From Candidatus Moraniibacteriota bacterium (GTDB taxonomy: Bacteria; Patescibacteriota; Minisyncoccia; Moranbacterales; GCA-2747515), in NCBI GenBank assembly GCA_016699795.1, contig CP065011.1, positions 883,449 through 947,448 on the forward strand: 64,000 nucleotides of DNA, written 5' to 3'. Below the pieces are notes generated by a model. It was not told where the DNA came from and did no database searches. It saw only the letters and a list, made by a program, of their open reading frames with translations. A program made the position numbers and the translations under genes. Shown piece by piece: positions 3,908-62,574 of the stretch (within the stretch, counting starts at the first letter, position 1; each line of letters opens with the position of its first letter).

Positions 3908-4279
3908 GGGAAAAGCATTGAAGTAGCGGTCCGACTGGACCCATTTACAACACAAGGTACTTGAGGTGTAAGTATCGAAAAGGAGAACACATGAATTGCG
4001 TATCTATTTATTTTTATTTTAAAAATAAATAAACGAAGTGATGTGTCCTTCTTTTACGAGAAGCGCCTCACGGCGTTTCTTTCTTTTTTGAAGAAAGAAA
4101 TTAGACACAAGAACATTAACAATTTTTATCATCATCACAATTTTGTGCGATTAGTCCCAGAACTTTACTTGAGTCTTTTCAGAGAAGTTAGTCAAGTAAA
4201 GGGAAGGTTCTCTTCGTCTAAGTTTTACTTGGACGTCGTAAACTTTGTTTTTCATAAGATTTTTCTCAAAAATCTTTTT

Positions 4280-5791
<1,512 letters not shown>

Positions 5792-6744: not shown

Positions 6745-6884
6745 GAGAGTATCTCCCTGCTATTGTTTAAGGAACTTGTATATGCTTTTTTAGCATAATG
6801 ATTACTATAAAGGAATGAACGTATATTGCAAGGTTTTTTTTGGGATGATACTGTTTTAGAATACTATTAAAAAATATAAGAAAT

Positions 6885-7658
6885 ATGTCAAAATATTATA
6901 GAGCAAAAAGGGTAAAAAATCTTTTTGATCCTGAATCGAAAAAACCTTTTAAAATAAGTCGGTCGAAAATTGATCTTTTTTTGAATTGTCAACGATGTTT
7001 TTATCTTGATAGACGTTTGGGAGTGGGAAGACCTCCAGGATTTCCCTTTCAGCTTAATTCTGCAGTAGACCATCTTCTTAAAAAAGAGTTTGATGAACAT
7101 CGAGTTAAAAAATCAATTCATCCTTTAGCTGAAAATTATGAATTAAACCTCATCCCTTTTTCACATGAAAAGATAGATGAATGGAGGGAGAATTTTAAAG
7201 GAGTGCAATTTCTTCATGAAGAAACGAATTTCAAAGTTACTGGAGCAGTAGACGACCTTTGGATAGACGATGCGGGTGTTATTTTTGTTGTAGATTATAA
7301 AGCAACAAGTAAAGTGGGTGAGGTAAATATTAATGCTGAGTGGCAAATTGGATATAAAAGACAGATGGAAATATACCAATGGCTTATGAGAAAGAATGGT
7401 TTTGAAGTTTCTAACACAGGTTATTTCGTCTATTGTAATGGAAAAACTGATAGAAAAGCATTTGATGGGAAATTAGAATTTGATATAAAAATTATTCCTT
7501 ATACGGGAAATGATTCTTGGATAGAAGATGTTCTTTTAGAATCTCATGATTGTCTTATGAGAGGCGTGTTGCCAAAGGCTTCTCGAAATTGCGATTATTG
7601 TGCGTATATAAAAGCTGTAAAGCAATCCGAACAAGAAGATTTTGTAGAATATATTTAA
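6885..7658 (+). CDS. PD-(D/E)XK superfamily nuclease (Cas4/RecB-like) with putative Fe-S cysteine cluster
   Basis: 257 aa. N-terminal CQRC, a VVDYKAT (D-x-K) core and three C-terminal Cys (C...C..C), a layout similar to Cas4/AddB-type nucleases. Confidence 0.55.
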   Translation: MSKYYRAKRVKNLFDPESKKPFKISRSKIDLFLNCQRCFYLDRRLGVGRPPGFPFQLNSAVDHLLKKEFDEHRVKKSIHPLAENYELNLIPFSHEKIDEWRENFKGVQFLHEETNFKVTGAVDDLWIDDAGVIFVVDYKATSKVGEVNINAEWQIGYKRQMEIYQWLMRKNGFEVSNTGYFVYCNGKTDRKAFDGKLEFDIKIIPYTGNDSWIEDVLLESHDCLMRGVLPKASRNCDYCAYIKAVKQSEQEDFVEYI

Positions 7659-7667
7659 TAAAGTTTT

Positions 7668-7691
7668 TCTTAATAAAAAAACTATCTACGT
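7668..7691. terminator. hairpin after nuclease gene
   Basis: 'aaactatct acgttg agatagtt' is an 8-9-bp stem. It has an A-run on the left and only a weak T-run on the right, so it could terminate either strand. Confidence 0.35.
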
Positions 7692-8286
7692 TGAGATAGT
7701 TGTGTGTGGGGTGTTTATAAAATTATTTTTTGAGAGGGAATTCTCGAAGGGTTTGGGTGATGAGAGAGGATGTGAAAATTGAGAATTTTCTTAGAAAATA
7801 ATTTTATGAACGTAAAGAACTATCTCTAGTATAATCTCATTATTTTCCTTGTCAAATATTGCTAAAAATACGAGAAGAAAAAGAAAATCGCCTAGAGAAG
7901 AAATCTTCAGCATAAGCGATTTTTTTTGGGATTACCACCATAGGTAGTGCGCTCCTAACATAAGGTAGGTAGCACTCGCTAAGAGTGCTATGAGTGTGAA
8001 AATCCAAACACAACAAAATTTTTTGTACCTGGACCCTCAGAAAGAACCTTTAAAAGGATAGACATAGTCTCTCTCCTTGTTTTGTTTAAAGAACTTTCAA
8101 CTCCCATATTGTACCATATTTTAATATCTCTGTCAAAATAAAATTCTCTTTATAATCATAAAATAAGCTTTATTTTAAATAAAAAACGTTCTTTTTCGGA
8201 CGGTGCATAACTCACCCTTTACAACTTGACAAAAAGAGAGTAAAACAGTCTTTGTAAGAGGTTCTTTTTAATTAGGAGTACTTCAG

Positions 8287-8715
8287 ATGAAACGTTTGAT
8301 GTTTGATGAATACATGAGGAGTCTTTGGCGGATTCCTGAGGTTCACTTTCTATATCTTATTTTTCTTGCTCAAGACTGGAGAATTTTGAGTCAAGAGAAT
8401 AGGGAATATGCATGGAAGCGACTTGGGAAAGAACCGGAAATTCTTGACCTTGTGGATCAATGGATTGATCATGGTGGGCTTGAGCATTTTCAACGAGCAC
8501 ACCATCGGCTTTACGAACTTGCGAGAGAAAGAATAACTGAATCACATTTTATTCAGTTTCAAGTCTTCTTTACACTCTCGCACATACCTCTCAGAGAGTT
8601 AGCAAAACTTTCTGATGAGAATCCAGATAGTCTTTTCCAGCACTATGAGTGTTGGTTGTCTTCTCAAATGAGAAGAAGATTCTCTGGAATCGTTGCTCAG
8701 TATACTCTGAAGTGA
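8287..8715 (+). CDS. hypothetical protein (GC-rich island gene 1)
   Basis: 142-aa ORF at about 45% GC, versus roughly 30-38% in surrounding genes. No recognisable motif. Confidence 0.5.
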   Translation: MKRLMFDEYMRSLWRIPEVHFLYLIFLAQDWRILSQENREYAWKRLGKEPEILDLVDQWIDHGGLEHFQRAHHRLYELARERITESHFIQFQVFFTLSHIPLRELAKLSDENPDSLFQHYECWLSSQMRRRFSGIVAQYTLK

Positions 8716-9087
8716 GGTGCTAAACTAATGAAAAGCGAAAAAGATATTGAATTCTAAAAGACGGTAAATGTTTTTATACATTCCGTCTTTTTTCTTTTTA
8801 ACAATAGATGGATGAAGTTAAGAAGAATGAGTTTTTAATACAAATTTTTATAAAATATCTAAAGAAAAACAGGTATAACTATTTATTTCAAAGGAAATTC
8901 GGTTATAATTCTTTGATGGTATAAACATTGTTGATATTGACAAAAAAGGTAAAACATTGAAAGATTATATGTTCGAAAGTTCTTTAAGAAGAAAAATTTT
9001 TCGGTCAAATAGACTTGCACGAATCCAATCTGCGAGTCTTGGGGCCGAAAAAAAGGCTAATCTAAAATTTCCTCGGAGATCAGTATC

Positions 9088-9879
9088 ATGAAACTGTTGT
9101 GTACACTTTTTCTTTTCATCTGCAGTATTGCTGTAAATGGAGCAAATGCTAATTCTTTCGATTGGCATTCTACGTCAGCACCTCTATTTCGTGTGGCTGG
9201 AACAGAGTCTTTTGGAGTTATTTCAATCACTTCCAATTTCCCTGTTTCTCACCTTCGAAGAATTCATATGAATGGAGCTGTTATCCAATCGATGGATTTG
9301 GTAAAGGGAGTAAATAATGAGACGAGACCACCGACAGGAACTCCTATTTATGAAGGGGGACGATTTGGTGGAATCTTTGGAAGTCCTGCTATAGGTTCGA
9401 TCTTTATGGGGACAAAGAAGATCGAAGGGGGCGTCGTTTTTTTTGGAGGATGGGCATGTACTTCTCATTGGATATGTACCTACGGAGTATATAAAATTGG
9501 ATGTAAAGATGAAGTTTGTTCTGGATATACACCTGTACAAAAGGTGAGAGAGTATGCAAATCCTGTGAGTACGAGAGAGGCGTGGATAGATCTTTTGACT
9601 CTATCTTCAGACCAAAAAACTTTGGCTTGGCGACGGATAGAGCGAAATAAATCCGATGAAGGAAATCTTGTGACTGAACTTTGGAGAAAAGTTGAGAATG
9701 CAAGTCCTGTAAGGATCGCCGTTAATAATGCCGGAGGAGTTTCTTTGGCAGGAAGTCTTGAAATTTTTCCTGGCGTTAACGGGCAAATAACTATCGTCGC
9801 ACCACCTGGAAATGACACTCTAAATGGAAAAGCGGCCTTGTATTCGACTGCGTATGGATGGCGTGCATTAGCCCCATAA
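9088..9879 (+). CDS. secreted Gly/Cys-rich hypothetical protein (GC-rich island gene 2)
   Basis: 263 aa. N-terminal signal peptide MKLLCTLFLFICSIAVNGANA, a Gly-rich stretch and six Cys. About 46-48% GC. Confidence 0.55.
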   Translation: MKLLCTLFLFICSIAVNGANANSFDWHSTSAPLFRVAGTESFGVISITSNFPVSHLRRIHMNGAVIQSMDLVKGVNNETRPPTGTPIYEGGRFGGIFGSPAIGSIFMGTKKIEGGVVFFGGWACTSHWICTYGVYKIGCKDEVCSGYTPVQKVREYANPVSTREAWIDLLTLSSDQKTLAWRRIERNKSDEGNLVTELWRKVENASPVRIAVNNAGGVSLAGSLEIFPGVNGQITIVAPPGNDTLNGKAALYSTAYGWRALAP

Positions 9880-10026
9880 AGAGAAAGTGTTCCTAATAAC
9901 TCACATTTTTTTCTGTAAAAACAGAATGAATGTGAGTTTTTTTATGGAAAAATTTTCTTTTCATTGGTATTTTTCTTTACTTTTTTATTTTTTATATGGT
10001 ATAGAGAAAGAGTCACTTGCGTGTAA

Positions 10027-10290
10027 GTGGTACCACCAAAGAAATCCAAAAGGGAAGATTTGTCAATGAAAAGATCAAGAAGAGTAATGATGGTTATGTT
10101 TGATAAGATTCCGTGTGTAGTGAAGAAAGTAGGATGGGCGTACCGATCATCACTCACCGTGAAGTTCTTTGATGAAAGTGGAGAGAAAGAAATTTCTCCA
10201 GAGATGAAAATTTCAGTTCAAGGAGAAATCATTGAACATGAAATTCATGAATTATCAGGATGGATGTTTATCGTGTACCATCCTCGATAA
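10027..10290 (+). CDS. small hypothetical protein
   Basis: 87-aa ORF (alternative start MKRSRR at ~10066) followed by a clean intrinsic terminator. Confidence 0.35.
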   Translation: MVPPKKSKREDLSMKRSRRVMMVMFDKIPCVVKKVGWAYRSSLTVKFFDESGEKEISPEMKISVQGEIIEHEIHELSGWMFIVYHPR

Positions 10291-10297
10291 TATTTTA

Positions 10298-10330
10298 TAA
10301 AGCGATCATTTTACATAAGATCGCTTTTTT
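10298..10330 (+). terminator. rho-independent terminator
   Basis: 'aaagcgatc attttacataa gatcgcttt' followed by 'tttt'. Confidence 0.6.
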
Positions 10331-10420
10331 AATTGAAAAAAATACATATATTTGTATAGAAAGATTTTTTGAAAAATGTTTATAAGATGGCTTTAAGTAT
10401 GTATTTTTTTTAAAAATTAT

Positions 10421-10452
10421 TTGACAAAAAATAGTTTATTGGTAAACTATTT
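10421..10452 (+). promoter_or_regulatory. marR promoter with overlapping perfect palindromic operator
   Basis: TTGACA (10421-10426), 16-nt spacer, TAAACT (10443-10448). A 10-4-10 palindrome 'aaatagttta ttgg taaactattt' (10429-10452) spans the spacer and -10. A third half-site 'gaatagttttt' lies ~10 nt downstream. Confidence 0.5.
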
Positions 10453-10482
10453 AAATGGTTGAATAGTTTTTGAAAATGTTCT

Positions 10483-10944
10483 ATGACAAGAAAATTTTTG
10501 TTTTCAGGGGAGACGCTTATTCAGACAGCTCATCGACTAGAAACGCTCGCTGAAAAATGTGTTTTTATTCCTATGAAAATGTCTCTTATAAGCTTTCGAA
10601 TATTAGAAGCTATTGCAAAAGAAGATATTTATATTGCGAGTGATTTGCAAAATTTATTGAAATCGAAAAAATCTAATATTGCGCAAAGGGTACAGATGTT
10701 AGAGAAACGAGGATTTCTTCGTCGAGAACGTTCAAAAGAAGATGGAAGAAAAATTATTCTTTTTATTACGCCAAAAGGGAAGAAAAAAGTTGAAGATGTG
10801 AGAATTCGATTTGAGAAAGCCCGTATTTGTTTGGAAAGTTTTTTTTCTAAAGAAGAATTAGAAAGTGAATTAAAATTTTTTCAGAAATTAAATTCTTTTT
10901 TGGATTTACAAGAAAAGTCATTGAGTAAAATATTTGAGAAATAA
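10483..10944 (+). CDS. MarR-family transcriptional regulator
   Basis: 153 aa. Winged-helix region (LISFRILEAIAKEDIYIASDLQNLL...AQRVQMLEKRGFLRRERSKEDGRKIILFITPKG) is typical of MarR. Confidence 0.7.
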   Translation: MTRKFLFSGETLIQTAHRLETLAEKCVFIPMKMSLISFRILEAIAKEDIYIASDLQNLLKSKKSNIAQRVQMLEKRGFLRRERSKEDGRKIILFITPKGKKKVEDVRIRFEKARICLESFFSKEELESELKFFQKLNSFLDLQEKSLSKIFEK

Positions 10945-12105
10945 GTGAACATAAGAAATATGAAAAAATCTATTCGTTTTATTTTGGGTGTTCTTCTTCT
11001 CATTGGAGTTTTTGGTTCTGCGATATATTTTTCTCCAAAACAGGAAGTTTCTCAAGAGCAAGACACAACAACGAAGTCGATTGTTGTTACTACGCAGTCA
11101 ATAGAAGAAAGTCGTGTATTTCCTCAGCTAGTTACGTATCCTGCTACTGTCATTGGAAACCAAGAATCCGATATTGTTGCTAAATCAGCAGGAACTATTT
11201 CCGTTTTGAATATTTCGTTAGGGGACCATGTTCTTCCAGGATCTTTTTTGACAAAAATTGATGATACAGGAAATTCTCGTTCTTCTAACGTCGAAAATTT
11301 TCAGAGTAAAGAACTTCAGCAAGCTAATATCAATAAAGAAAAAGCTCAAAAATCTGTTGATATTGCTGAAAGAAATTATCAAAGTCTAAAAAAGATTTAT
11401 GAAGAACAAGAAGATGATGACACTCTTTTAAAAACAGTTACAAAAGATCAAGTAAGATCGGCAAAACTTCAGATTGATATGACAAAACTTGAAAAAGAAA
11501 ATGCCGAAATTGCTCTTCAGAGTTTATTAGATAATCACCTTGTCACAAGCCCCCTTGAAGGCTATGTGACGAATATTTTAGTTTCTGTTGGGGATTATGT
11601 TACTCCCGGAGAAACATTGGCCACGATAAGCAAAACAAAGAGTGCGAAGCTCCGACTTTATGTAGATCAAAATCATTTTACTTTTTTTCAAAAAGGTACA
11701 GTGTTTAGTTTTATGGATGGAAATAGAAAAGTGTATAAAGCACGTGTGGAAAATATCTCACCACAAGCAGATCTTATAACACGACGTTTTCTCGTAGAAG
11801 CTTCTCCTGAAGAAAAAACAGAAGAGTTATTATTGGGAACTATTGTTTCGGCAGAATTTTCTTTTGAACAAAAGCCTCAAATGGAAGAAAATATCCTTCT
11901 TCCTATTTCTGCAATTACATTTGGACAAAATGAAAATAATATTTTTATCGTAGAGAATGAACGAGCTCGACGCGTTGTTGTGGAAGTGTCTCGTGTAGTC
12001 GGAGAAATGGCTGAAATAAAAATAGATCTCCCTCGAGATGCAAAGGTTATTGTTTCTGGAAATAAATTAGTACGGGATGGAGATAATGTCTCTCTCTCGA
12101 AATAA
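10945..12105 (+). CDS. efflux RND transporter periplasmic adaptor (membrane fusion protein, HlyD-like)
   Basis: 386 aa. N-terminal TM anchor, coiled-coil hairpin and a lipoyl/beta-barrel segment (TSPLEGYVTNILVSVGDYVTPGETLATI). Directly precedes the RND permease. Confidence 0.75.
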   Translation: MNIRNMKKSIRFILGVLLLIGVFGSAIYFSPKQEVSQEQDTTTKSIVVTTQSIEESRVFPQLVTYPATVIGNQESDIVAKSAGTISVLNISLGDHVLPGSFLTKIDDTGNSRSSNVENFQSKELQQANINKEKAQKSVDIAERNYQSLKKIYEEQEDDDTLLKTVTKDQVRSAKLQIDMTKLEKENAEIALQSLLDNHLVTSPLEGYVTNILVSVGDYVTPGETLATISKTKSAKLRLYVDQNHFTFFQKGTVFSFMDGNRKVYKARVENISPQADLITRRFLVEASPEEKTEELLLGTIVSAEFSFEQKPQMEENILLPISAITFGQNENNIFIVENERARRVVVEVSRVVGEMAEIKIDLPRDAKVIVSGNKLVRDGDNVSLSK

Positions 12106-12110
12106 TATAT

Positions 12111-15100
12111 ATGGAAAAAAAATCCCAACAATTTTCTTCCGACTCTCTTTATCTTAAACAGTTAGAGTTTCGTCCAGAATTACGAAAAACATGGCTTAAT
12201 TTTTTTGTAGAGAACTTTCGCGTTGTTACTCTTCTCGTACTTCTTATTTCTTTTTGGGGAATATATGCTTTTTTGAATTTGCCTCGAGAATCAAATCCGG
12301 AGGTAAAAATTCCCGTTGCGGTTATTACCGTTACCTACCCAGGCGTTTCTCCAACAGATATGGAGGAATTGGTGACGAAAAAAATCGAAACAAGTATTTC
12401 AAGTATAAGTGGTATAAATAGAGTTACTTCAAATTCTTCTAACTCTTTTTCTTCTGTAGCGGTTGAATTTGAAGCAAATCAGGATGTGGATGATTCTATT
12501 CGAAACTTGCGAGATAAACTTGCAACTATTCGTTCAGATATTCCTGAAGAAGCGAATGATCCCCAGCTTATGGAGATTTCTTTTGATAATACTCCCGTAG
12601 TTACTTTTGCTCTTACTGGACCATACGATGATTTCTCTTTGCGTACTTGGGGAGAAAAAATTCAATCTGAATTGGAAAAAATTCCTGATGTTCGAGAGGT
12701 GACTGTTTCAGGGGGAGATCAAACAGAATTTGAAGTTGCTTATGATCCTCAAAAATTAGCATTTTTTGGTATTAGCGTGGATCAGGCAAATCAAACAATA
12801 AGTGGAACAAACCGTGCTGTTCCTGCTGGAAATTTTGAAGGAAAGGAATTTAACTATCCTGTTCGTGTGGAAGGGCGATTTTTTGATGTGAAATCTATAG
12901 GAGAAATTCCTTTGTCCCATACGCAAGACGGGGCTATTATTTTTGTAAAAGATGTAGCAACTGTTTCTGAAAAAGCTATTGAAAAAACGATACTCTCTCG
13001 AATTTCTGCAGGAGGAGAAGAACCAAGTAGTGCTGTTATTATTCAAGTGGTGAAAAGAACAGGGGGGAATATTATTGATGTAGTGAGTGAGTCAAAAAAG
13101 CGTATAGACTCGATGATAAAAACCTTTCCTTCGGGTGTTGCTTATGAGACGACATTGGATATGTCTGAGCAAATTAATGAAGATTTTTCTCAGTTAACGC
13201 ACGATTTTTTCTTAACAGTGGGATTAGTTTTTTTCATTCTTTTTCTTTTCGTTGGTCTTAAAGAAGCTCTTGTGGCGGGCATTGCTATTCCATTAGTTTT
13301 TTTCATTACTTTTGGAATAATGCTTTCTTTGGGAACTTCTCTTAACTTTCTTTCTCTTTTTTCTCTCCTTCTTTCTCTTGGTCTCTTGGTAGATGATGCC
13401 ATTGTTGTTGTTTCAGCTATAAAACAATATATGCGTACGGGAAAATTTACACCAGAGGAAGCTGTTCTTTTAGTTTTAAATGATTATAAAATAGTTCTTC
13501 TTTCTACAACGCTCGCTACAGTATGGGCTTTCTTACCATTACTTATGGCCAGTGGAATGATTGGGGCATTTATTAAATCAATTCCTATTACAGTATCTAT
13601 AACATTATCATCTTCTCTCTTAGTAGCTATAGCGATCAATCCTCCAATGGCAGCATTGTTGGAACGTGTTCGTTTAACGAAAGGAGTCTTTTTTTCTTTC
13701 TTTTTCATTCTTTTTGGAATGGGTATGTTTGGGGCGACACAAAATGTTCTTTGGGGGTATGCTCTCGCTCTTATTTCTTTCATTCTTTCCGTGGGAATGC
13801 TCCGATGGTATTTTTTCAAGGGAGTTCGAATCCTTAAAATGAATCAAGATCTTGTAGATAAAGAGTCAATAGATGATGACCTCATAAAAGAAAAACTTGC
13901 CTATCAAGGAAATAGAGAAGCGCATAGTTCTTTTAAAGATCGCCTTATTCATGGCATTATTTCATTCGATCACATCCTTCCTTTGTATGAGAAATATCTT
14001 CGTAAAGTGCTTTTGACAAAAAAACGTCAGATGCTTTTTCTGGGAGGAGTTTTTGTAATATTTGTTCTTTCTGTGTTATTACCCGTTACTGGCGTAGTAA
14101 AAACGGAATTCTTTCCAGAATCCAATGGTAATACTCTTTCTATTTCATTTCGAGCTCCAGCAGGAGTTGTTATCGACCAGACAGATAAGGTGGTTCAAAA
14201 AGTTGAAGAACGACTTCTTGGTTTTCAGGAAATAGAGAATTTCTCTACTTTAGTAGGAAATCCAGGAGCTTCTAGTGGTGGTGGGGTGTCTCAGAATACG
14301 TCGAATGTTGCTTCTATTTCTGTTCAATTAGTTAATCCCGAAGAGAGAGAAAAAACATCGGAACAAATTGCGCAGAGTATCCGTGATACTATCAAAGATA
14401 TTCAGGGCGCAACTATCGTAGTAGAAGCACCAAGAGGAGGACCTCCTTCCGGAGCAGCTTTTCAGGCTGAAATTATAGGAGATGATTTACAGACATTAGA
14501 TAAGATTGCTAATGATCTCAAGTTAATTTTGAAAGAAATACCTGGCGTTGTGAATAGCGATATTTCTCTGAGGGATTCTTCTGCGGAATATACTTTTTCT
14601 TTAGATACATCTAAAATGGAGCTATATAATTTGAATGCTCTCTTAGTGGGAAGTACTCTTCGAACAGCTATTTCTGGAACAAAAGTCACTACGGTTATTC
14701 GTGAAAATAAAGATATTGATGTGGTTGCACGTTTTGATGAAACGAGGATACCAACATTAGATGCTATACAGAATTTACAAATTCTTAATACACAAAAACA
14801 ACCAGTATTTTTAAAAGATGTAGCTACTATACAACTTATTCCTTCGGTGGATTCTATTTCTCGTATTGATCAAAAAAGAACGGTTCTTCTTACCTCGGGA
14901 GTAACAACGATGATTAGCTCTACACAACTCGTAAAAGTTTTTCAAGAGAAAATGGCTAAAGAATATACACTTCCTGATGGATATTCTATTTCTTATGGTG
15001 GAGAAAATGAGCAAAATGCAGAATCGGTACTTTCTATTATTCAAGCAATGGCTATCGCAGGAATATTAATTGTTTCAACCTTAGTAATTCAATTTAATTC

Positions 15101-15521
15101 CTTTAGAAAAGCATGTATCGTTTTGGTAACTTTACCTTTGGCGCTTATCGGAGTTTTCGTTGGAATGGCACTTCTTGGAGTGAATCTGAGCTTTCCTGGA
15201 CTCATTGGAATCCTCGCGCTTTTTGGTATCGTGGTAAAAAATGCCATTATTCTTATTGATAAAATTAATCTTAATTTAAATGCAAAAATTTCTTTTTCTG
15301 AAGCAATTGTTGATGCGGGAAAGTCGAGATTAGAAGCTATTATGATAACTTCATTTTGTACTATCGCAGGAATCCTTCCTATTACACTTTCCAATGAAAC
15401 GTGGATGGCTTTGGGATCGGCGGTTATTTTTGGACTTTCGGTATCTTCTTTTCTAACGCTCTTTGTTGTGCCAGTCCTTTATGTCGTTGTGGCGAGTAGA
15501 AAAGAAAAAATGATTTTATGA
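12111..15521 (+). CDS. efflux RND transporter permease (AcrB/HAE family)
   Basis: 1136 aa. 12-TM topology with two large periplasmic loops and conserved RND blocks (e.g. VVKNAIILID, DAGKSRLEAIMITSFCTIAGILP). Confidence 0.85.
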   Translation: MEKKSQQFSSDSLYLKQLEFRPELRKTWLNFFVENFRVVTLLVLLISFWGIYAFLNLPRESNPEVKIPVAVITVTYPGVSPTDMEELVTKKIETSISSISGINRVTSNSSNSFSSVAVEFEANQDVDDSIRNLRDKLATIRSDIPEEANDPQLMEISFDNTPVVTFALTGPYDDFSLRTWGEKIQSELEKIPDVREVTVSGGDQTEFEVAYDPQKLAFFGISVDQANQTISGTNRAVPAGNFEGKEFNYPVRVEGRFFDVKSIGEIPLSHTQDGAIIFVKDVATVSEKAIEKTILSRISAGGEEPSSAVIIQVVKRTGGNIIDVVSESKKRIDSMIKTFPSGVAYETTLDMSEQINEDFSQLTHDFFLTVGLVFFILFLFVGLKEALVAGIAIPLVFFITFGIMLSLGTSLNFLSLFSLLLSLGLLVDDAIVVVSAIKQYMRTGKFTPEEAVLLVLNDYKIVLLSTTLATVWAFLPLLMASGMIGAFIKSIPITVSITLSSSLLVAIAINPPMAALLERVRLTKGVFFSFFFILFGMGMFGATQNVLWGYALALISFILSVGMLRWYFFKGVRILKMNQDLVDKESIDDDLIKEKLAYQGNREAHSSFKDRLIHGIISFDHILPLYEKYLRKVLLTKKRQMLFLGGVFVIFVLSVLLPVTGVVKTEFFPESNGNTLSISFRAPAGVVIDQTDKVVQKVEERLLGFQEIENFSTLVGNPGASSGGGVSQNTSNVASISVQLVNPEEREKTSEQIAQSIRDTIKDIQGATIVVEAPRGGPPSGAAFQAEIIGDDLQTLDKIANDLKLILKEIPGVVNSDISLRDSSAEYTFSLDTSKMELYNLNALLVGSTLRTAISGTKVTTVIRENKDIDVVARFDETRIPTLDAIQNLQILNTQKQPVFLKDVATIQLIPSVDSISRIDQKRTVLLTSGVTTMISSTQLVKVFQEKMAKEYTLPDGYSISYGGENEQNAESVLSIIQAMAIAGILIVSTLVIQFNSFRKACIVLVTLPLALIGVFVGMALLGVNLSFPGLIGILALFGIVVKNAIILIDKINLNLNAKISFSEAIVDAGKSRLEAIMITSFCTIAGILPITLSNETWMALGSAVIFGLSVSSFLTLFVVPVLYVVVASRKEKMIL

Positions 15522-15954: not shown

Positions 15955-16920
15955 TTAAGAAGATATTTTTAAATTTTGAAGAAAAGTTTCGAAGTCTGAT
16001 GGGATAGGGGTGGTAAAAGAATATTTTTCTTTTTCGAAAATAAACGATATTTTGTAAGCGTGTAAAAGTTGTCGTGGTGCACTTTGATCGTTTTTAAATT
16101 CTTTTCGTTTATAAAGTTTATCACCAACTACTGGATGTCCAATAAAGGATGCATGAATACGTATCTGATGCATTCTTCCTGTCTTTGGATAAAATTTAAG
16201 AAGAGAGAAGAATTTTGTAGCTTTGAGAGAGGATGAAAATTTTTTGATGATTTGATACTTTGTGATCGCCTGTCGAGGAGTTCCTTTCCACTTTGCACGA
16301 CCAGTTGGTATAGTTTGTTTTCGAAAGTTGGCAGAACGTGCGATAGATTGATCTATAATTCCTTTTGTTTCTTTTGGAATGCCATAGACAAGAGCAAGAT
16401 ATTCTTTCTGAATATTTCTTGAGGCAAAGAGGCTTTTGAATTTTTTGAAGGAATCATTCGTTTTCGTTATAACAAGAATGCCTGAAGTATCTTTGTCGAG
16501 TCTATGAACGATTCCCGGACGAGTTAAATCTTCACCCACAGTTAAAATATCCGGATATTGAGCAGCAACCCAATTAACAAGAGTGTTTTCTTTTTCAGTA
16601 CTCGAAGGATGAACCTGAATACCTGGAGGTTTATTAATGATGATAAAAAATTCATTTTCAAAGAGAACAGGGATTTTTAGAGTAAAGTTTTTTTTAATAG
16701 TGTGCGGGGACACATCTTCTAAAAAAGCAACTTCGAGGAGATCATCTTTTTTTAAGATATAGCTAGGTTTTTTCTTTTCATGATTGATTTTTACAGCCCC
16801 TTCTCTTATTTCTTTGACAAGGGATGATCGAGATCGATCAGGATAATGAGTGTGTAAAAAAACATCGAGACGTTGTCCAATGTTTTTGTCGATAGGAATA
16901 AAGATGGAAGATTTTTTCAT
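15955..16920 (-). CDS. RluA-family 23S rRNA pseudouridine synthase (RluD-like)
   Basis: 321 aa. N-terminal S4-like domain and the catalytic HRLDKDTSGILVI motif. Confidence 0.8.
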   Translation of the reverse strand: MKKSSIFIPIDKNIGQRLDVFLHTHYPDRSRSSLVKEIREGAVKINHEKKKPSYILKKDDLLEVAFLEDVSPHTIKKNFTLKIPVLFENEFFIIINKPPGIQVHPSSTEKENTLVNWVAAQYPDILTVGEDLTRPGIVHRLDKDTSGILVITKTNDSFKKFKSLFASRNIQKEYLALVYGIPKETKGIIDQSIARSANFRKQTIPTGRAKWKGTPRQAITKYQIIKKFSSSLKATKFFSLLKFYPKTGRMHQIRIHASFIGHPVVGDKLYKRKEFKNDQSAPRQLLHAYKISFIFEKEKYSFTTPIPSDFETFLQNLKISS

Positions 16921-16981
16921 AAGAGAGTATTATGTTTACTGTAAACGGTAAATGATAACCTGTAAACCTATTTTTTTAGAT

Positions 16982-17914
16982 ATGAATAAAATAACGATAG
17001 TTGGAGCGGGGGTGGTGGGGGCCACAAGTGCTTATAGTCTTATTGCTAAAGATGTTGCTGAAGAATTAGTCCTTGTAGATATTAATAAAGAATTAGCGGA
17101 AGCTGAGGCTATGGATTTACAGCATAGCGTTTCATTTTTTGGTTCAACGCAGGTAAGAGCTGGATCTTATGAGGATTTCTCAGATAGTCAAATCGTAGTA
17201 TTCTGTGCTGGATCTGCTCAGAAAGAAGGGCAATCACGATTGGATTTAATTCAGGATAATGCCAGAATAGTACAAAAAGTTGTCCCTGAAATATTTTCTC
17301 GAAATCCAGACGCTATGCTGATAATGGTTACAAATCCCGTTGATGTTCTTACTTATCTAGCAATACAAATGTTTCCAGAAAAAAAGCGACAAATAATAGG
17401 AACGGGAACAATGTTGGATAGCTCTCGCTTTCGATATTTATTGGGAGCAAAACTGCGTGTAAATTCTAAGAGTATTACTGCTTATATTGTAGGAGAACAT
17501 GGAGATTCTGAAGTGCCGTATTGGTCGACAGCTACTACAGGATCTATGAGTCTTGATACTTGTCGATTACTTACAAAAGAAGAAAAGGACGAGATATTTT
17601 CCCAGGCAAAAAATGCAGCATATGCTATTATTAAAGGGAAGCAAGCAACCTATTATGCGATCGGTGCTGTAGTATCTCACTTATGTAATGTTATTATTAA
17701 AGATAAAAGAGTCATACTTCCAATTTCACATTTTATAGAGGGTGAATTTGGTATATCGGATGTATGCTTGAGTATTCCTGTTGTGGTTGGAAAAGAAGGT
17801 GTTGCGGGGCATTTGTGTGTGGTATTTTCGGATGAAGAATTGACGTTACTCAAGAAATCAGCAGATACACTAAAAGAAGTCATTGCTTCTTTGGACTTAA
17901 CATCAAAAACATAA
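16982..17914 (+). CDS. ldh: L-lactate/malate dehydrogenase family protein (likely L-LDH)
   Basis: NAD-binding ITIVGAGVVG, the LVLVDIN..MDLQHS block and the GEHGDS active-site loop. The ORF track starts at 16952, but MNKITIVGAG at 16982 fits the family N-terminus. Confidence 0.7.
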   Translation: MNKITIVGAGVVGATSAYSLIAKDVAEELVLVDINKELAEAEAMDLQHSVSFFGSTQVRAGSYEDFSDSQIVVFCAGSAQKEGQSRLDLIQDNARIVQKVVPEIFSRNPDAMLIMVTNPVDVLTYLAIQMFPEKKRQIIGTGTMLDSSRFRYLLGAKLRVNSKSITAYIVGEHGDSEVPYWSTATTGSMSLDTCRLLTKEEKDEIFSQAKNAAYAIIKGKQATYYAIGAVVSHLCNVIIKDKRVILPISHFIEGEFGISDVCLSIPVVVGKEGVAGHLCVVFSDEELTLLKKSADTLKEVIASLDLTSKT

Positions 17915-59832: not shown

Positions 59833-62574
59833 ATGGAAAAACAAAAAGAGCGAAATACACGAATACCTTTCTATACATGGCCATCAAAAAAAGTGGTAGA
59901 TTTTTTTCATTCAAGACCAGAAGGTCTCTCTCAAGAAGAGGCAAAAGCACGGTTTGATAGGTATGGAGAAAATTTTATAGCGGACAAGAAAAAAGTACAT
60001 CCTTGGATTATTTTTTTTAGACAATTTCGAAGTGTTTTAATTTATGTTCTTTTGTTTGCTGCAGCTATTTCTTTTGTTGTAAATCACTTTTTAGATGTTT
60101 GGATTATTTTGGGAATAGTTGTTTTTAATGCATTTCTTGGATTTTTTCTAGAATATAGAGCAGAAAGATCTATTGAGGCATTGAAAGATATGATGGCTCA
60201 AAATGCAAAGACTTTGCGTAATAATAAACTTTCTCAAATTGATTCTCGGCTTTTAGTTCCTGGAGATATTGTTTTTCTTGAAGAAGGAGATAGAATTCCA
60301 GCCGATGGGAGAATCCTTTTTGCTGATGATGTTCGTGTAGTTGAAAGCTCACTTACGGGAGAGGCTTTTCCGCAAAGTAAATCGGTAAAAAATCTTACAG
60401 CAGATCTTCCCTTGGGGGATCAAAAAAATATGCTTTGGTCGGGGACATATATGGTTTCTGGTGAGGCACGAATGATTGTAACGGCAACGGGTTTTTTTAC
60501 GCAATTAGGAGAAATTGCTCAAAAAATGGAAAAAATTGAAACTACCCCAACGCATTTTAAAGAAAGAATAAGCATACTTTCAAAACAATTGGGATTTGTT
60601 GCTGTTTTAGGAACCATACTTACCTTTCTTGCTGGATATTATCTTGCTGAATTAGAATTTTCGGAGACATTTTTGGCGGCAGTTGCCATTTTAGTTTCTG
60701 GTATACCGGAAGGACTTCCTGCTGTCTTAACTATTGTCTTATCCGTAAGTGCTTCGAGGATGGCTAAGAAAAAGGCAATTGTTCGGTCATTACCAGCAGT
60801 GGAAACTTTGGCAATTGTAGATACTATTCTTACTGATAAAACGGGAACTCTTACGGATAATACAATGAATATTGTAAAAGCATATCTTCCTGGTCAAGAA
60901 GATATCTCTATAGAGGGAAAGGGTTGGGAGTCATGCGCAAGATTTCTTCAATCAGGAATACCCGTAGCACCATTAGAAGATTTAGCATTTCGACAACTTG
61001 CACATATTGCAGGGAGATGTTCATCAGCCAAAGTGTATCCTGTTGAATTTTCTAGTGGAAATCCCGGGGATTGTTCTTTGGAAAACTTTGAAATTGTGGG
61101 AGATCCTACGGAAGCAGCTCTCGTTGTTTTTTCTCGAAGAGCTGGTATTTCTCCTGATATTTTGGACGCTACTGAATTTAAGGTTGACGATTTACCTTTT
61201 CGGTCCGATAGGCAATTTCGTTCAACATTAGTCCATAAGAAAAATGATGAAGCTCAAATTCTTTATGTTGTAGGAGCTCCAGAAAAAGTTTTATCTCGAT
61301 GTGATTTTATTTTTCAGGATGGACGTGTTCAAAAATTACTTGCTGGACACCAAGAAGAAATTCTTTCTCAGGTTGAGAATTGGTCAAAAAAGACTTTGCG
61401 TGTTATAGCTTTGGCCTATAGAGAACGAATGGAAAATAAAAAATCTATTTATGAAGATGATGTTGAAATGCTCGTCTTTGCAGGACTTGTCGGTATGATG
61501 GATACGCCAAGAGAAGGTGTTTCTGAGGCTGTTTTTCAGGCAAAATCTGCGGGAATTCGTGTTATTATGACAACGGGAGATCATAAAGAAACAGCGATGG
61601 CAATTGCTCAAAAGGTAGGAATAGCTACCAAGAATGAGAGAGCTTACACTCAGGGTGAATTGGAGATGTTATCAGAAGAAGAATTTTTGCAAGTAGTTCG
61701 AAAAGTAAATGTTTTTGCTAGACTTACTCCAGATATGAAGTATCGCATAACACAAACTCTTCAGGCTGATAAAAAAGTTGTGGCCGTAACTGGAGATGGT
61801 GTGAATGATGCGCTTGCCTTACGAAAAGCTGATATAGGTATCTCTATGGGAAAAAATGGAAGTGATGTGGCAAGAGAGGCTGGAGCTATCATTTTAGCTG
61901 ATGATAATTTTTCTACTATTGTGAGTGCTATAGAGGAGGGACGTATCGTCTTTAATAATATACGACGGTCAAGCTCTTTTCTTCTTACAACAAGTTTTGC
62001 TGAGTATGGGACTATTATCGCCGCGCTTTCTTTAGGCACTCACCTTCCTTTTCTTCCGACGCAAATTCTTTGGCTTAATTTAGTTACTGATGGATTTTCT
62101 GTCATTCCTCTTGCTATGGAACCAAGTCATGGAAATGCTATGAAACATCCTCCTTTTGCTAAAAAAGAACGAATTCTTTCTCGTCAAACATTACCATTTC
62201 TTCTTTTTATTACAACAGTAATGATTATTCTTTCTTTAGGAACATTTCTTTGGTTTTTTGATAAAAAAGGCCTTGATTCAGCCCGTGCTGCGGGATTTGC
62301 CGTTTTGGCAATGACACAGATATTCAATGCTTTCAATATGAGGTCATTTTATTCTAGCTCGATTAGTCTTGGATTTTTTAAGAATAGATTACTTATTTGG
62401 GCAACATTAGCATCTTTTTCTCTTTTGGTACTATCTCTCTATTTTCCTCCTATGCAAAAAATATTTGGCTTTTCTTCATTAAATATTTCAGAATTTATAG
62501 TATTATTTTTTCTTTCGAGTTTAATTCTTGTTGCAGGGGATATGTATAAACGTATTCTTTATACAAAAAGATAA
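59833..62574 (+). CDS. cation-translocating P-type ATPase (P2-type, Ca2+/Mg2+-like)
   Basis: 913 aa. TGES-like actuator region, phosphorylation site LTDKTGTLT, TGDHKETA, hinge VTGDGVNDALALRKADIGISMG, and 10 TM helices. Confidence 0.9.
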   Translation: MEKQKERNTRIPFYTWPSKKVVDFFHSRPEGLSQEEAKARFDRYGENFIADKKKVHPWIIFFRQFRSVLIYVLLFAAAISFVVNHFLDVWIILGIVVFNAFLGFFLEYRAERSIEALKDMMAQNAKTLRNNKLSQIDSRLLVPGDIVFLEEGDRIPADGRILFADDVRVVESSLTGEAFPQSKSVKNLTADLPLGDQKNMLWSGTYMVSGEARMIVTATGFFTQLGEIAQKMEKIETTPTHFKERISILSKQLGFVAVLGTILTFLAGYYLAELEFSETFLAAVAILVSGIPEGLPAVLTIVLSVSASRMAKKKAIVRSLPAVETLAIVDTILTDKTGTLTDNTMNIVKAYLPGQEDISIEGKGWESCARFLQSGIPVAPLEDLAFRQLAHIAGRCSSAKVYPVEFSSGNPGDCSLENFEIVGDPTEAALVVFSRRAGISPDILDATEFKVDDLPFRSDRQFRSTLVHKKNDEAQILYVVGAPEKVLSRCDFIFQDGRVQKLLAGHQEEILSQVENWSKKTLRVIALAYRERMENKKSIYEDDVEMLVFAGLVGMMDTPREGVSEAVFQAKSAGIRVIMTTGDHKETAMAIAQKVGIATKNERAYTQGELEMLSEEEFLQVVRKVNVFARLTPDMKYRITQTLQADKKVVAVTGDGVNDALALRKADIGISMGKNGSDVAREAGAIILADDNFSTIVSAIEEGRIVFNNIRRSSSFLLTTSFAEYGTIIAALSLGTHLPFLPTQILWLNLVTDGFSVIPLAMEPSHGNAMKHPPFAKKERILSRQTLPFLLFITTVMIILSLGTFLWFFDKKGLDSARAAGFAVLAMTQIFNAFNMRSFYSSSISLGFFKNRLLIWATLASFSLLVLSLYFPPMQKIFGFSSLNISEFIVLFFLSSLILVAGDMYKRILYTKR

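Follow-up and report, generated by a model that had tools for sequence, protein, structure and literature searches.

A small, probably replaceable gene slot with a rare secreted-protein gene in a Moranbacteria-type CPR genome

Introduction

Flexible (replacement) genomic slots hold unrelated content between conserved flanks and lack integrases, tRNA genes and repeats. The locus analysed here shares these features, although with one or two genes in 0.8-1.6 kb its slot is tiny, and the comparison covers two lineages. Like classical integrase/tRNA islands it shows a local rise in GC, holds accessory content and is missing from a relative, but it has no integrase or transposase, tRNA or direct repeats, and its codons and tetranucleotides are not deviant. 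Polymorphic toxin and effector-immunity pairs are similar in that a small secreted protein adjoins a small uncharacterised protein in a patch of odd composition; unlike such pairs, the two genes are not found together in other genomes, and the locus encodes neither a toxin nor an immunity domain and lies in no secretion-system or Rhs/PT-type context. At the protein level, the five-bladed GH43/GH62 arabinofuranosidases, the six-bladed GH93 enzymes and the PL24 lyases provide the best structural neighbours of the model, which is likewise predicted to be exported, all-beta and propeller-like. The likeness is limited to TM scores of 0.34-0.48 at ~10% identity, and the domain described here is shorter (~240 aa), matches no Pfam or PDB sequence profile and carries a four-cysteine cluster that is not a trait of those families.

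The locus lies in a 64-kb stretch of DNA, hereafter the window, from a tiny-genome CPR bacterium of the Moranbacteria type. A sequence-only reading had described positions 7860-9880 as a compositional island of ~45-48% GC, with a shift that suggested horizontal acquisition. In place of this vague "GC island" we present a precise map, which shows a replaceable slot of 1.6 kb with a conserved regulatory element on either side (Table 1). We consider it probable that the region is a mosaic, in which a slot with a horizontally moving secreted-protein gene is set into an ancestral remainder.

Table 1. Features of the region, with positions in the window
Feature	Position	Strand	Basis
PD-(D/E)XK (Cas4-like) nuclease gene	6885..7658	+	Pfam PDDEXK_1, E = 1e-13
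Candidate small RNA, ~150 nt	7668..7855	-	Promoter match, conservation in L001, fold
Hairpin ACTATCT-N6-AGATAGT, 3' of nuclease gene	7681..7700	.	Read from sequence; kept in L001
Terminator of minus-strand small gene, hairpin AAAATCGC...GCGATTTT with A and T runs on its flanks	7885..7927	-	Read from sequence
Small hydrophobic protein gene, ~44 aa	7932..8065	-	Intact ORF in L001
Sigma-70-type promoter TTGACA-17-TACAAT (with TG) of minus-strand small gene	8108..8136	-	11/12 positions
142-aa protein gene IPN70_04145 (all-helical, cytoplasmic)	8287..8715	+	Synteny, AlphaFold2
Intrinsic terminator of 142-aa gene, AAAAGACGG...CCGTCTTTT + T-run	8756..8799	+	Read from sequence
Variable (replaced) block: 263-aa gene and 74-aa ORF	8801..10410 (approximate)	.	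blastn blocks stop at 8705 and restart at 10418
263-aa secreted protein gene IPN70_04150	9088..9879	+	Homologues, AlphaFold2, Foldseek
Sec-type signal peptide MKLLCTLFLFICSIAVNGANA, predicted cut after ANA	9088..9150	+	Read from translation
Cys cluster C124, C130, C139, C144	9457..9519	+	Invariant columns, 9-sequence alignment
Intrinsic terminator after 263-aa gene, CTCACAT...ATGTGAG + T7	9900..9943	+	Read from sequence
74-aa ORF, IPN70_04155	10066..10290	+	Inside variable block
Intrinsic terminator after 74-aa ORF, AAGCGATC...GATCGCTT + T-run	10300..10331	+	Read from sequence
marR promoter TTGACA-16-TAAACT overlapping palindrome AATAGTTTA-N4-TAAACTATT	10418..10456	+	Promoter scan, 10/12 positions
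MarR-family regulator gene, then RND efflux genes	10483..10944	+	Pfam MarR

Results and discussion

Base composition of the region

The hand counts behind the proposed island were accurate, with 46% GC at 8401-8500 (counted as 45%), 48% at 9781-9880 and 26% at 60001-60100. The island itself did not hold up, as 7860-9880 has an overall GC content of only 37.2% compared to a background of 34.3%, and falls to troughs of 22-25% at 8700-9000. Windows of 100-200 nt with 44-49% GC were found at many other positions of the 64 kb, and at the 2-kb scale the region contained no outlier, with none of its windows in the top GC set. At the 800-nt scale, 9001-9800 was the highest non-rRNA window (41.6%; mean 34.3%, sd 2.8%). 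The strongest GC feature nearby, at ~50% over 4.2-5.8 kb, is the 16S rRNA gene.

Among 59 ORFs, the 263-aa ORF ranked first for GC (42.0-42.2% versus a mean of 35.3%, sd 2.8, z ~2.4; GC2 0.485, GC3 0.288). The 142-aa ORF tied for second with one other ORF (39.9-40.0%) and had the highest GC3 (0.343). From amino-acid composition and host codon usage, the GC predicted for the 263-aa gene was 40.6% (residual z = 1.2) and for the 142-aa gene 37.1% (residual z = 2.1). About three quarters of the excess in the 263-aa gene was traced to its Gly/Ala/Pro/Thr/Trp/Cys-rich composition. Synonymous codon usage of this gene was unremarkable (z = 1.7, rank 11/59), as was tetranucleotide distance across 6.5-10.5 kb (z = -0.9 to +1.3). 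The 263-aa ORF is indeed the GC-richest, but tetranucleotides and codons are normal, and the signal within the window would not by itself exceed normal gene-to-gene variance.

The reported lack of an integrase or flanking direct repeat was confirmed. No integrase, transposase or recombinase gene lies within ~9 kb on either side, and the repeats in 7600-10600 are short AT-rich chance matches that include no credible flanking direct repeat. There is also no tRNA gene nearby; ARAGORN detected none in the window, and Rfam only a partial tRNA at 1-64. Rfam searches of 7600-10500 at gathering and permissive thresholds returned chance-level matches only (E > 1). The neighbouring genes are dnaX, a GtrA-like gene, a hypothetical gene, 16S rRNA, pyrF, the nuclease gene, marR, two RND genes, rluD, ldh and aspS.

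A slot between conserved flanks

A single relative, L001 (16S ~88% identical), is syntenic with the region. Window positions 6884-8705 are collinear with L001 2802-4658 at 68.6% DNA identity, and 10418-15510 matches L001 5537-10622. Between these blocks the two slots share no cross-match, the ~0.8-kb slot of L001 being occupied by an unrelated 160-aa gene on the minus strand. The left edge is the terminator of the 142-aa gene, which is kept in L001 and is the final conserved element before the variable block. The right edge is the marR promoter/operator, the first conserved element past the block, with ~35 nt nearly identical in L001. The palindrome that overlaps this promoter is perfect and is probably a MarR autoregulatory operator. 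MarR itself (59% identical to its L001 orthologue) is a syntenic, conserved right neighbour. The nuclease gene, whose product is 75% identical to its L001 orthologue, is the conserved left neighbour and lies outside any island.

The 142-aa protein is 71% identical to a protein encoded at the same position in L001 (P0003), and the GC content of that homologue is average for the L001 genome (z = 0.2). AlphaFold2 predicted eight helices (pLDDT 72), for which Foldseek found no PDB match, with nothing below E = 3. As had been reported, the protein has no recognisable motif, with no meaningful match in Pfam, NCBIfam, PADLOC or PHROGs. Because the 142-aa gene, the nuclease gene and a "GC-rich non-coding stretch" (7900-8060) noted by the sequence-only reading occupy the same places in L001, they are ancestral, and neither the stretch nor the 142-aa gene can be counted as acquired cargo. 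Absence from the syntenic position in a relative therefore applies to ~8801-10410, with the 263-aa gene and the 74-aa ORF, but not to 7860-8800, which is conserved in L001.

In the mosaic that we favour, 6885-8800 would be ancestral throughout, comprising the nuclease gene, a candidate small RNA and a ~44-aa membrane-protein gene (both on the minus strand) and the 142-aa gene. The segment from ~8801 to 10410 would be a replaceable accessory slot with two independent promoter-gene-terminator units, one for the 263-aa gene and one for the 74-aa ORF. A simple scan overlooked the terminator of the 263-aa gene on account of its loop of more than 8 nt. The 74-aa ORF had been read as an 87-aa version beginning at GTG 10027; neither version has a meaningful Pfam, NCBIfam, PADLOC or PHROG match. 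The 74-aa protein stands in NCBI as QQS61049.1 and has one cluster mate at >=90% identity. P0018 is a near-identical copy of it, and a homologue was found in none of the fetched loci.

At least six samples carry the L001 arrangement unchanged. Close relatives of L001, found through the RND protein cluster, belong to the same species (99.5% identity) and have the same slot content, so they provide no information on polarity. Since synteny is shared by only two lineages, a gain on the window side cannot be told apart from a loss or replacement on the L001 side. Relatives of the nuclease are common across CPR genomes (574 matches), and it alone matched Cas4-like models in PADLOC and PHROGs. A GTDB scan with the nuclease yielded 80 CPR loci, none with the same neighbourhood or with the 142-, 263- or 87-aa proteins. 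Two JGI metagenome scans with alignments of the 142-aa protein and MarR gave zero matches.

The 263-aa protein and its predicted fold

The signal peptide, Gly-rich segment and six cysteines previously described in the 263-aa protein are all present. Two of the cysteines fall within the signal peptide; the remaining four are conserved in every family member. Signal peptidase I substrates combine an N-terminal basic residue with a 10-15-residue hydrophobic core and have small residues at -3 and -1 (A-x-A). By inspection, the N-terminus of the 263-aa protein, MK-LLCTLFLFICSIAV-NGANA with NS following the cut, fits this pattern, and the N-termini of the homologues are likewise hydrophobic and close in A-x-A/G. 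No lipobox ([LVI][ASTVI][GAS]C) precedes either of the cysteines in the signal region. The four invariant cysteines follow the pattern C-T-x2-W-x-C-x-Y/K-G-x5-C-x-D-x2-C-x2-Y and probably form two disulfides.

From an input of nine sequences, AlphaFold2 produced an all-beta model of moderate confidence with ~18-20 strands (pLDDT 72.6, pTM 0.74). Of the top 50 PDB neighbours identified by Foldseek, almost all were beta-propellers (TM 0.21-0.48 overall, with the best as given above). The fold is thus predicted to be beta-propeller-like, a generic assignment at TM <0.5. Propellers set four-stranded antiparallel sheets, the blades, around an axis, and the modelled domain would have four or five of them. 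Pfam gave no match, to GH43, GH62, GH93 or any other family, at E <= 1 for any of the nine family members, a PDB sequence-profile search with the family gave none at E <= 10, and the 263-aa ORF had no meaningful NCBIfam, PADLOC or PHROG match. The suggested remote-homology and structure searches with the 142-aa and 263-aa proteins yielded propeller-like neighbours for the latter but no known family for either protein and no structural match for the 142-aa protein. The 263-aa protein would be exported by Sec, cleaved after ANA21 and folded into a compact beta-propeller-like domain with two disulfides. On the strength of its modelled fold class, it could most likely serve as an extracellular ligand- or glycan-binding module, possibly a glycan-processing one.

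Distribution of the 263-aa family

The 263-aa family is very rare and undescribed, with no Pfam or NCBIfam model. In a search of 5.8 billion clustered proteins, the 263-aa protein retrieved itself alone. Exhaustive phmmer over 1.84 billion representatives detected two homologues, and a profile search seven. One homologue is 44% identical to the 263-aa protein (P0004) and the others 29-36% (P0005-P0011). Apart from the window copy, the members belong to high-GC non-CPR genomes and to a single related CPR genome, L084. The two CPR copies group together, with 44% mutual identity compared to 29-37% to the others. Plasmid, phage and IMG/VR searches for the family were all negative. If the modelled fold is correct, these sequences define a family of exported four-Cys beta-propeller-like proteins common to CPR and high-GC free-living bacteria.

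L084 is related to the window genome, as its LDH and RluD are 75% and 54% identical, respectively, and the divergent adjacency is shared. Its family gene lies elsewhere, between an M10 peptidase gene and gmk/tilS/ftsH, unlike the window locus. This copy has 60.2% GC and a GC3 of 68.7%, versus 43.2 +/- 2.6% and 42.0 +/- 5.7% in its neighbours (z(GC) = 6.5), and forms a one-gene GC island whose edges coincide with the ORF, an arrangement seen in three assemblies. As an instance of recent transfer into a reduced genome, the L084 copy is clear-cut. We considered a link between the family and the M10 (matrixin-like) peptidase, by analogy to metalloproteases with a hemopexin propeller, but did not retain it: the structural neighbours include no hemopexin domain, the GC of the M10 gene is normal, and other family members have no M10 gene nearby.

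Elsewhere, the family gene is found between the SHMT and DHFR genes, near aconitase and Ech/complex-I-type genes (L085), or adjoins a Y1/RayT transposase gene (L089); in a fourth context (L093), the cytochrome b of a neighbouring gene shares a cluster with a protein from a Desulfobacterales MAG. A homologue of the 142-aa protein was absent from all four contexts (L084, L085, L089 and L093; eleven contigs, L084-L095).

Origin of the secreted-protein gene

Together, the non-homologous slot contents, the sparse and patchy family and the GC island at another locus in L084 make horizontal movement of the family credible. In the mosaic reading, the family would be mobile, given its high-GC non-CPR members and the L084 copy. 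Acquisition of the 263-aa gene alone, old or ameliorated in the window, is plausible. As a counterpoint, the codons and tetranucleotides of the window copy are host-like and provide no direct evidence of transfer. Its host-like codons suggest that acquisition would have been old or from a low-GC donor, and the residual GC excess may derive mainly from amino-acid composition. The gene could alternatively be an old resident of the CPR lineage that was lost or replaced in L001, with its GC a by-product of a Gly/Ala/Pro/Thr/Trp/Cys-rich, Lys/Glu-poor protein. Expected and observed GC (40.6% versus 42.2%), the normal codon usage and tetranucleotides and the mutual closeness of the two CPR copies are in keeping with such a history. 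However, the family is nearly missing from CPR in very large databases, the L084 copy sits at another locus and is compositionally foreign, and the other members belong to non-CPR high-GC genomes, and we regard residence without transfer as rather unlikely. That the two CPR copies group together would also fit a single old acquisition by a CPR ancestor and later relocation, but the 60% GC of the L084 copy counts against this for L084.

Two further readings concern the GC signal itself. The original proposal, in which 7860-9880 (or up to 10290) is one acquired island encoding a 263-aa toxin/effector and a 142-aa partner or immunity protein, draws on the facts that both ORFs are within the three GC-richest of the window, that a signal peptide and conserved cysteines are present in the 263-aa protein, and that neither protein has a known family. 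It is contradicted by L001, where the 142-aa gene and the stretch upstream are syntenic without the 263-aa gene, and by the other family members, which have no 142-aa homologue nearby. The two genes are separate transcription units with their own terminators, no toxin, immunity or defence model was matched (Pfam, NCBIfam, PADLOC, PHROGs), and the block's AT-rich troughs hold its overall GC to the modest value given above, which leaves the paired-effector island scarcely tenable. That the GC peaks are chance variation and the 263-aa ORF an ordinary hypothetical gene would accord with the frequency of similar short windows elsewhere and the lack of a 2-kb outlier. This, too, is very improbable in light of the comparative data, since 9001-9800 leads the non-rRNA windows, the 263-aa gene coincides exactly with the sole synteny break, and its closest homologue, in L084, is an unmistakable GC island.

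Building on the mosaic reading, we can imagine that a high-GC, Desulfobacterota-type periplasmic or surface propeller was captured more than once by Moranbacteria-type CPR episymbionts, recently in L084 and long ago in the window, and re-used for host-surface attachment or feeding. We hold this scenario to be improbable; if true, the repeatedly captured gene would be a marker of gene flow from host to symbiont and would indicate the hosts of these symbionts. For CPR biology more generally, transferred secreted surface proteins are candidates for host interaction. The finding is modest and leaves current understanding in place, its value lying mainly in annotation and in a lead for studies of host-symbiont gene flow.

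Minus-strand small genes

Two conserved minus-strand small genes, previously unannotated, lie between the nuclease gene and the 142-aa gene. The stretch taken to be non-coding encodes a conserved small membrane protein that is frameshifted in the assembly. Its L001 counterpart is an intact 43-aa ORF, MSFFYKLLLNGPDTKFCCLWILTLTTMVAGATYLMAGASFLWQ, while in the window assembly the frame is interrupted within an A6 run at 8019-8024. Adding one A restores a 44-aa ORF that is 56% identical to that of L001, with start, Shine-Dalgarno and stop identical in place, and tblastx aligned window 8021-7929 with L001 at 64.5%. The promoter of this gene is the best promoter match of the region, and both hexamers are kept in L001 (TTGACA-17-TATAAT). 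The terminator stem is also kept in L001 with a different loop, and appears in predicted folds.

The second gene is a candidate small RNA with zero Rfam matches. Its putative promoter, TTGACA-16-TATACT at 7855-7828, matches 11/12 positions and would give a transcript from ~7824 to 7668; both hexamers are kept in L001, with a variable spacer. The hairpin 3' of the nuclease gene has an A-run on one side and a T7 run on the minus strand, and reads as a terminator-like element acting both ways; it also forms the 3' hairpin when the minus-strand RNA is folded. Fold z-scores were -5.9 for the window sequence and -3.6 for that of L001, and the predicted structure places a long hairpin, whose loop is C/U-rich (anti-Shine-Dalgarno-like), ahead of the terminator.

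Conserved flanks enclose a single variable slot

The window comes from a MAG of Candidatus Moraniibacteriota (Moranbacteria), a lineage within the CPR/Patescibacteria. In the window, whose overall GC content is 34.3%, the 142-aa, 263-aa and 74-aa genes are preceded by dnaX, a GtrA-like gene, a hypothetical gene, a lone 16S rRNA gene, pyrF (minus strand) and a nuclease gene, and are followed by marR, an RND adaptor gene, an RND pump gene, rluD, ldh and aspS. No integrase, tRNA or repeats flank the block.

Features of the region, in window coordinates
Feature	Position	Strand	Remark
16S rRNA gene	4279-5789		solitary; 50% GC
PD-(D/E)XK/Cas4-like nuclease gene	6885-7658		immediate left neighbour of the region
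Candidate sRNA	7668-7855	minus	predicted RNA ~150 nt, ends at hairpin 7681-7700 + T7
Promoter TTGACA-16-TATACT	7855-7828	minus	precedes candidate sRNA
Terminator hairpin	7885-7927	minus	conserved; ends small gene
Unannotated small gene	7932-8136	minus	hydrophobic protein of ~44 aa
Promoter TTGACA-17-TACAAT	8136-8108	minus	followed by Shine-Dalgarno AAGGAGA and ATG at 8065
IPN70_04145	8287-8715	plus	142 aa
Terminator of 142-aa gene	8756-8799		last conserved element left of the slot
IPN70_04150	9088-9879	plus	263 aa
IPN70_04155	10066-10290	plus	74 aa
marR promoter and palindrome	10418-10456		first conserved element right of the slot
marR	10483-10944		right neighbour
rluD and ldh	15955-17914		between RND pump gene and aspS

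A single homologue cluster matched the 142-aa protein among 5.8 billion clustered proteins: P0003 (71% identical), encoded on L001, the contig of an organism whose 16S rRNA is ~88% identical to that of the window. L001 has the same order of 16S, pyrF, nuclease, 142-aa homologue, one gene, marR, RND adaptor and RND pump. The two sequences align collinearly over window positions 6884-8705 (68.6% DNA identity), with all 627 bp of the intergenic region included, and over 10418-15510 (69.5%). In a fine alignment, conservation ends on the left with the 142-aa gene's terminator and resumes on the right with the marR promoter and its perfect palindrome. Between them lies a slot of 1.6 kb in the window versus 0.8 kb in L001, where it holds an unrelated 160-aa gene (L001 4868-5350, minus strand); the contents of the two slots show no similarity to each other. 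At least six samples carry the L001 arrangement, at 99.5% identity.

The sequence-only reading had suggested that 7860-9880 is horizontally acquired cargo, possibly encoding a secreted effector or toxin with a partner. Given the collinearity with L001, whose 142-aa homologue has an average GC content for its own genome (z = 0.2), the 142-aa gene and the stretch upstream of it, described as GC-rich and non-coding, are ancestral, and neither is acquired cargo. Judged by this alignment, the accessory part is limited to ~8801-10410. A toxin-partner relationship between the 263-aa and 142-aa genes was not found.

The 160-aa gene of L001 has weak, sub-threshold matches to Host_attach (PF10116, E = 1e-4, 23 bits versus a cutoff of 26.7) and baeRF_family3, and at L068, also a CPR locus, it has a relative with 28% identity. 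At the right edge of the slot, the marR promoter (TTGACA-16-TAAACT) overlaps the perfect palindrome AATAGTTTA-N4-TAAACTATT. Since this segment is near-identical in L001 despite ~69% identity in its flanks, it is probably a MarR autoregulatory operator of the marR-RND efflux operon.

Elevated GC largely reflects amino-acid composition

The hand counts behind the proposed GC island were accurate (46%, 48% and 26%), and the local peaks are real; a contiguous 45-48% island is absent, as 7860-9880 averages 37.2% GC with troughs of 22-25% at 8700-9000. Values of 44-49% in 100-200 nt windows occur at many sites across the window. At the 2-kb scale the region contains no outlier windows, and 9001-9800 ranks first at the 800-nt scale only.

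Of the 59 ORFs with 90 aa or more (mean GC 35.3%, sd 2.8), the 263-aa ORF is the most GC-rich (42.0%); the 142-aa ORF shares second place (39.9%) and ranks first for GC3 (0.343). When each protein was recoded using codon preferences taken from the remaining genes, amino-acid composition alone predicted 40.6% GC for the 263-aa gene, leaving a residual of +1.7 points (z = 1.2); the residual for the 142-aa gene was +2.9 points (z = 2.1). The 263-aa protein contains 11.0% Gly versus 6.5% in the pooled proteins, with raised Ala, Pro, Thr, Trp and Cys and roughly half as much Lys and Glu as usual. In synonymous codon usage, the 263-aa gene ranks 11th of 59 (z = 1.7), with the 142-aa gene outside the top 12, and tetranucleotide distances across 6.5-10.5 kb range from z = -0.9 to +1.3. 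Normal gene-to-gene variance had been named as the standard that could overturn the island, and by that standard the compositional evidence inside the window is weak; the signal is mostly amino-acid composition.

The 263-aa protein belongs to an undescribed, probably exported family

A word-indexed search of 5.8 billion clusters matched the 263-aa protein only to itself. Exhaustive phmmer against 1.84 billion representatives recovered two homologues, P0004 (44%) and P0005 (36%), and a profile search brought in P0006-P0011. All members are ~250 aa, carry a signal peptide wherever the N-terminus is complete, and share four invariant cysteines within 21 residues (C124, C130, C139 and C144); the remaining two cysteines of the window protein sit in the signal peptide. 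No member matched Pfam, NCBIfam, PADLOC, PHROG or PDB sequences, and the family is undescribed. AlphaFold2 with a 9-sequence alignment predicted an all-beta structure (pLDDT 72.6, pTM 0.74). Its Foldseek neighbours are nearly all beta-propellers (GH43, GH62, GH93, PL24, WD40, NHL and sema) at TM 0.34-0.48 and ~10% identity, so the predicted fold class is probably propeller-like, without a specific family. From its signal peptide, the protein would be exported by Sec and cut by signal peptidase I after ANA; it may then fold with disulfide stabilisation by the conserved cysteines and bind a putative ligand or glycan outside the cell.

Family members occupy different contexts in every lineage

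Gene contexts of the family differ in every lineage. In L085, SHMT, the family gene, a hypothetical gene, YqeY and DHFR are consecutive, with aconitase and Ech/complex-I-type genes nearby. In L093 the family gene is followed by cytochrome b, and the cytochrome b cluster at ≥90% identity includes a Desulfobacterales MAG protein. In L089 (1897-2865) and L090, a Y1 (RayT/REP-associated) transposase gene lies directly upstream of the family gene, again followed by cytochrome b; the family member of this high-GC lineage has 65% GC versus 53% for the remaining contig, which together with the transposase may be another sign of mobility. Non-CPR hosts have 53-60% GC.

L084 (GCA_041738235.1, contig JBGSQF010000004.1) is from a related CPR genome, with LDH 75% and RluD 54% identical to those of the window in a shared divergent adjacency. 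Its family gene, flanked by an M10 (matrixin-like) peptidase gene on one side and by gmk, tilS and ftsH on the other, forms a sharp island at 9950-10800 with 60.2% GC and 68.7% GC3, versus 43.2 ± 2.6% and 42.0 ± 5.7% for 15 neighbour genes (z = 6.5 and 4.7). The borders of the island match those of the ORF, making it a single-gene island, and the arrangement was found in three assemblies. This copy is a textbook recent transfer and a far clearer case than that of the window. The two CPR copies are mutually closest (44% identity versus 29-37% to other members). Plasmid, phage and viral-contig searches found no carrier of the family.

Horizontal acquisition is supported in part: it concerns the accessory 263-aa gene, a member of a horizontally moving family. 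The 142-aa gene and the upstream stretch are ancestral, and there is no toxin-partner pair. The 263-aa gene sits in a flexible slot. With synteny from two lineages only, gain and loss are not formally separable, and we consider it fairly probable that the gene is horizontally derived but ameliorated; an old resident lost in L001 is a less likely origin.

Small minus-strand elements upstream of the 142-aa gene

Of the sigma-70-like matches in 7500-10600, the top two lie on the minus strand; both promoters are conserved in L001, with varying spacers. One precedes the unannotated small gene, whose counterpart in L001 is an intact hydrophobic ORF of 43 aa. The window ORF shifts frame within an A6 run (8019-8024); inserting one A yields an ORF of 44 aa with start and stop unchanged and 56% identity. 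A homopolymer assembly error is the simplest and more likely reading. A genuine frameshift is less likely but possible, since the sequence contains the heptamer A_AAA_AAU in register for -1 slippage. The IPN70 tags presumably derive from a MAG study of activated sludge that used Nanopore sequencing; PMC8012365 describes a study of this type.

The other promoter precedes the candidate sRNA, which in both organisms is predicted to form a long hairpin whose loop is C/U-rich and anti-Shine-Dalgarno-like (z = -5.9 in the window, -3.6 in L001). Neither element matched Rfam.

Further observations on gene order

Neither a 23S nor a 5S gene occurs in the 64 kb of the window, which means that the rRNA genes are unlinked. 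The real 50% GC feature near the region is the 16S gene, and its adjacency to pyrF also occurs in L001. As a second synteny difference between both lineages, rluD and ldh are missing from the corresponding place in L001, where 10630-11275 contains only a 156-aa ORF; the divergent pair is kept in L084.
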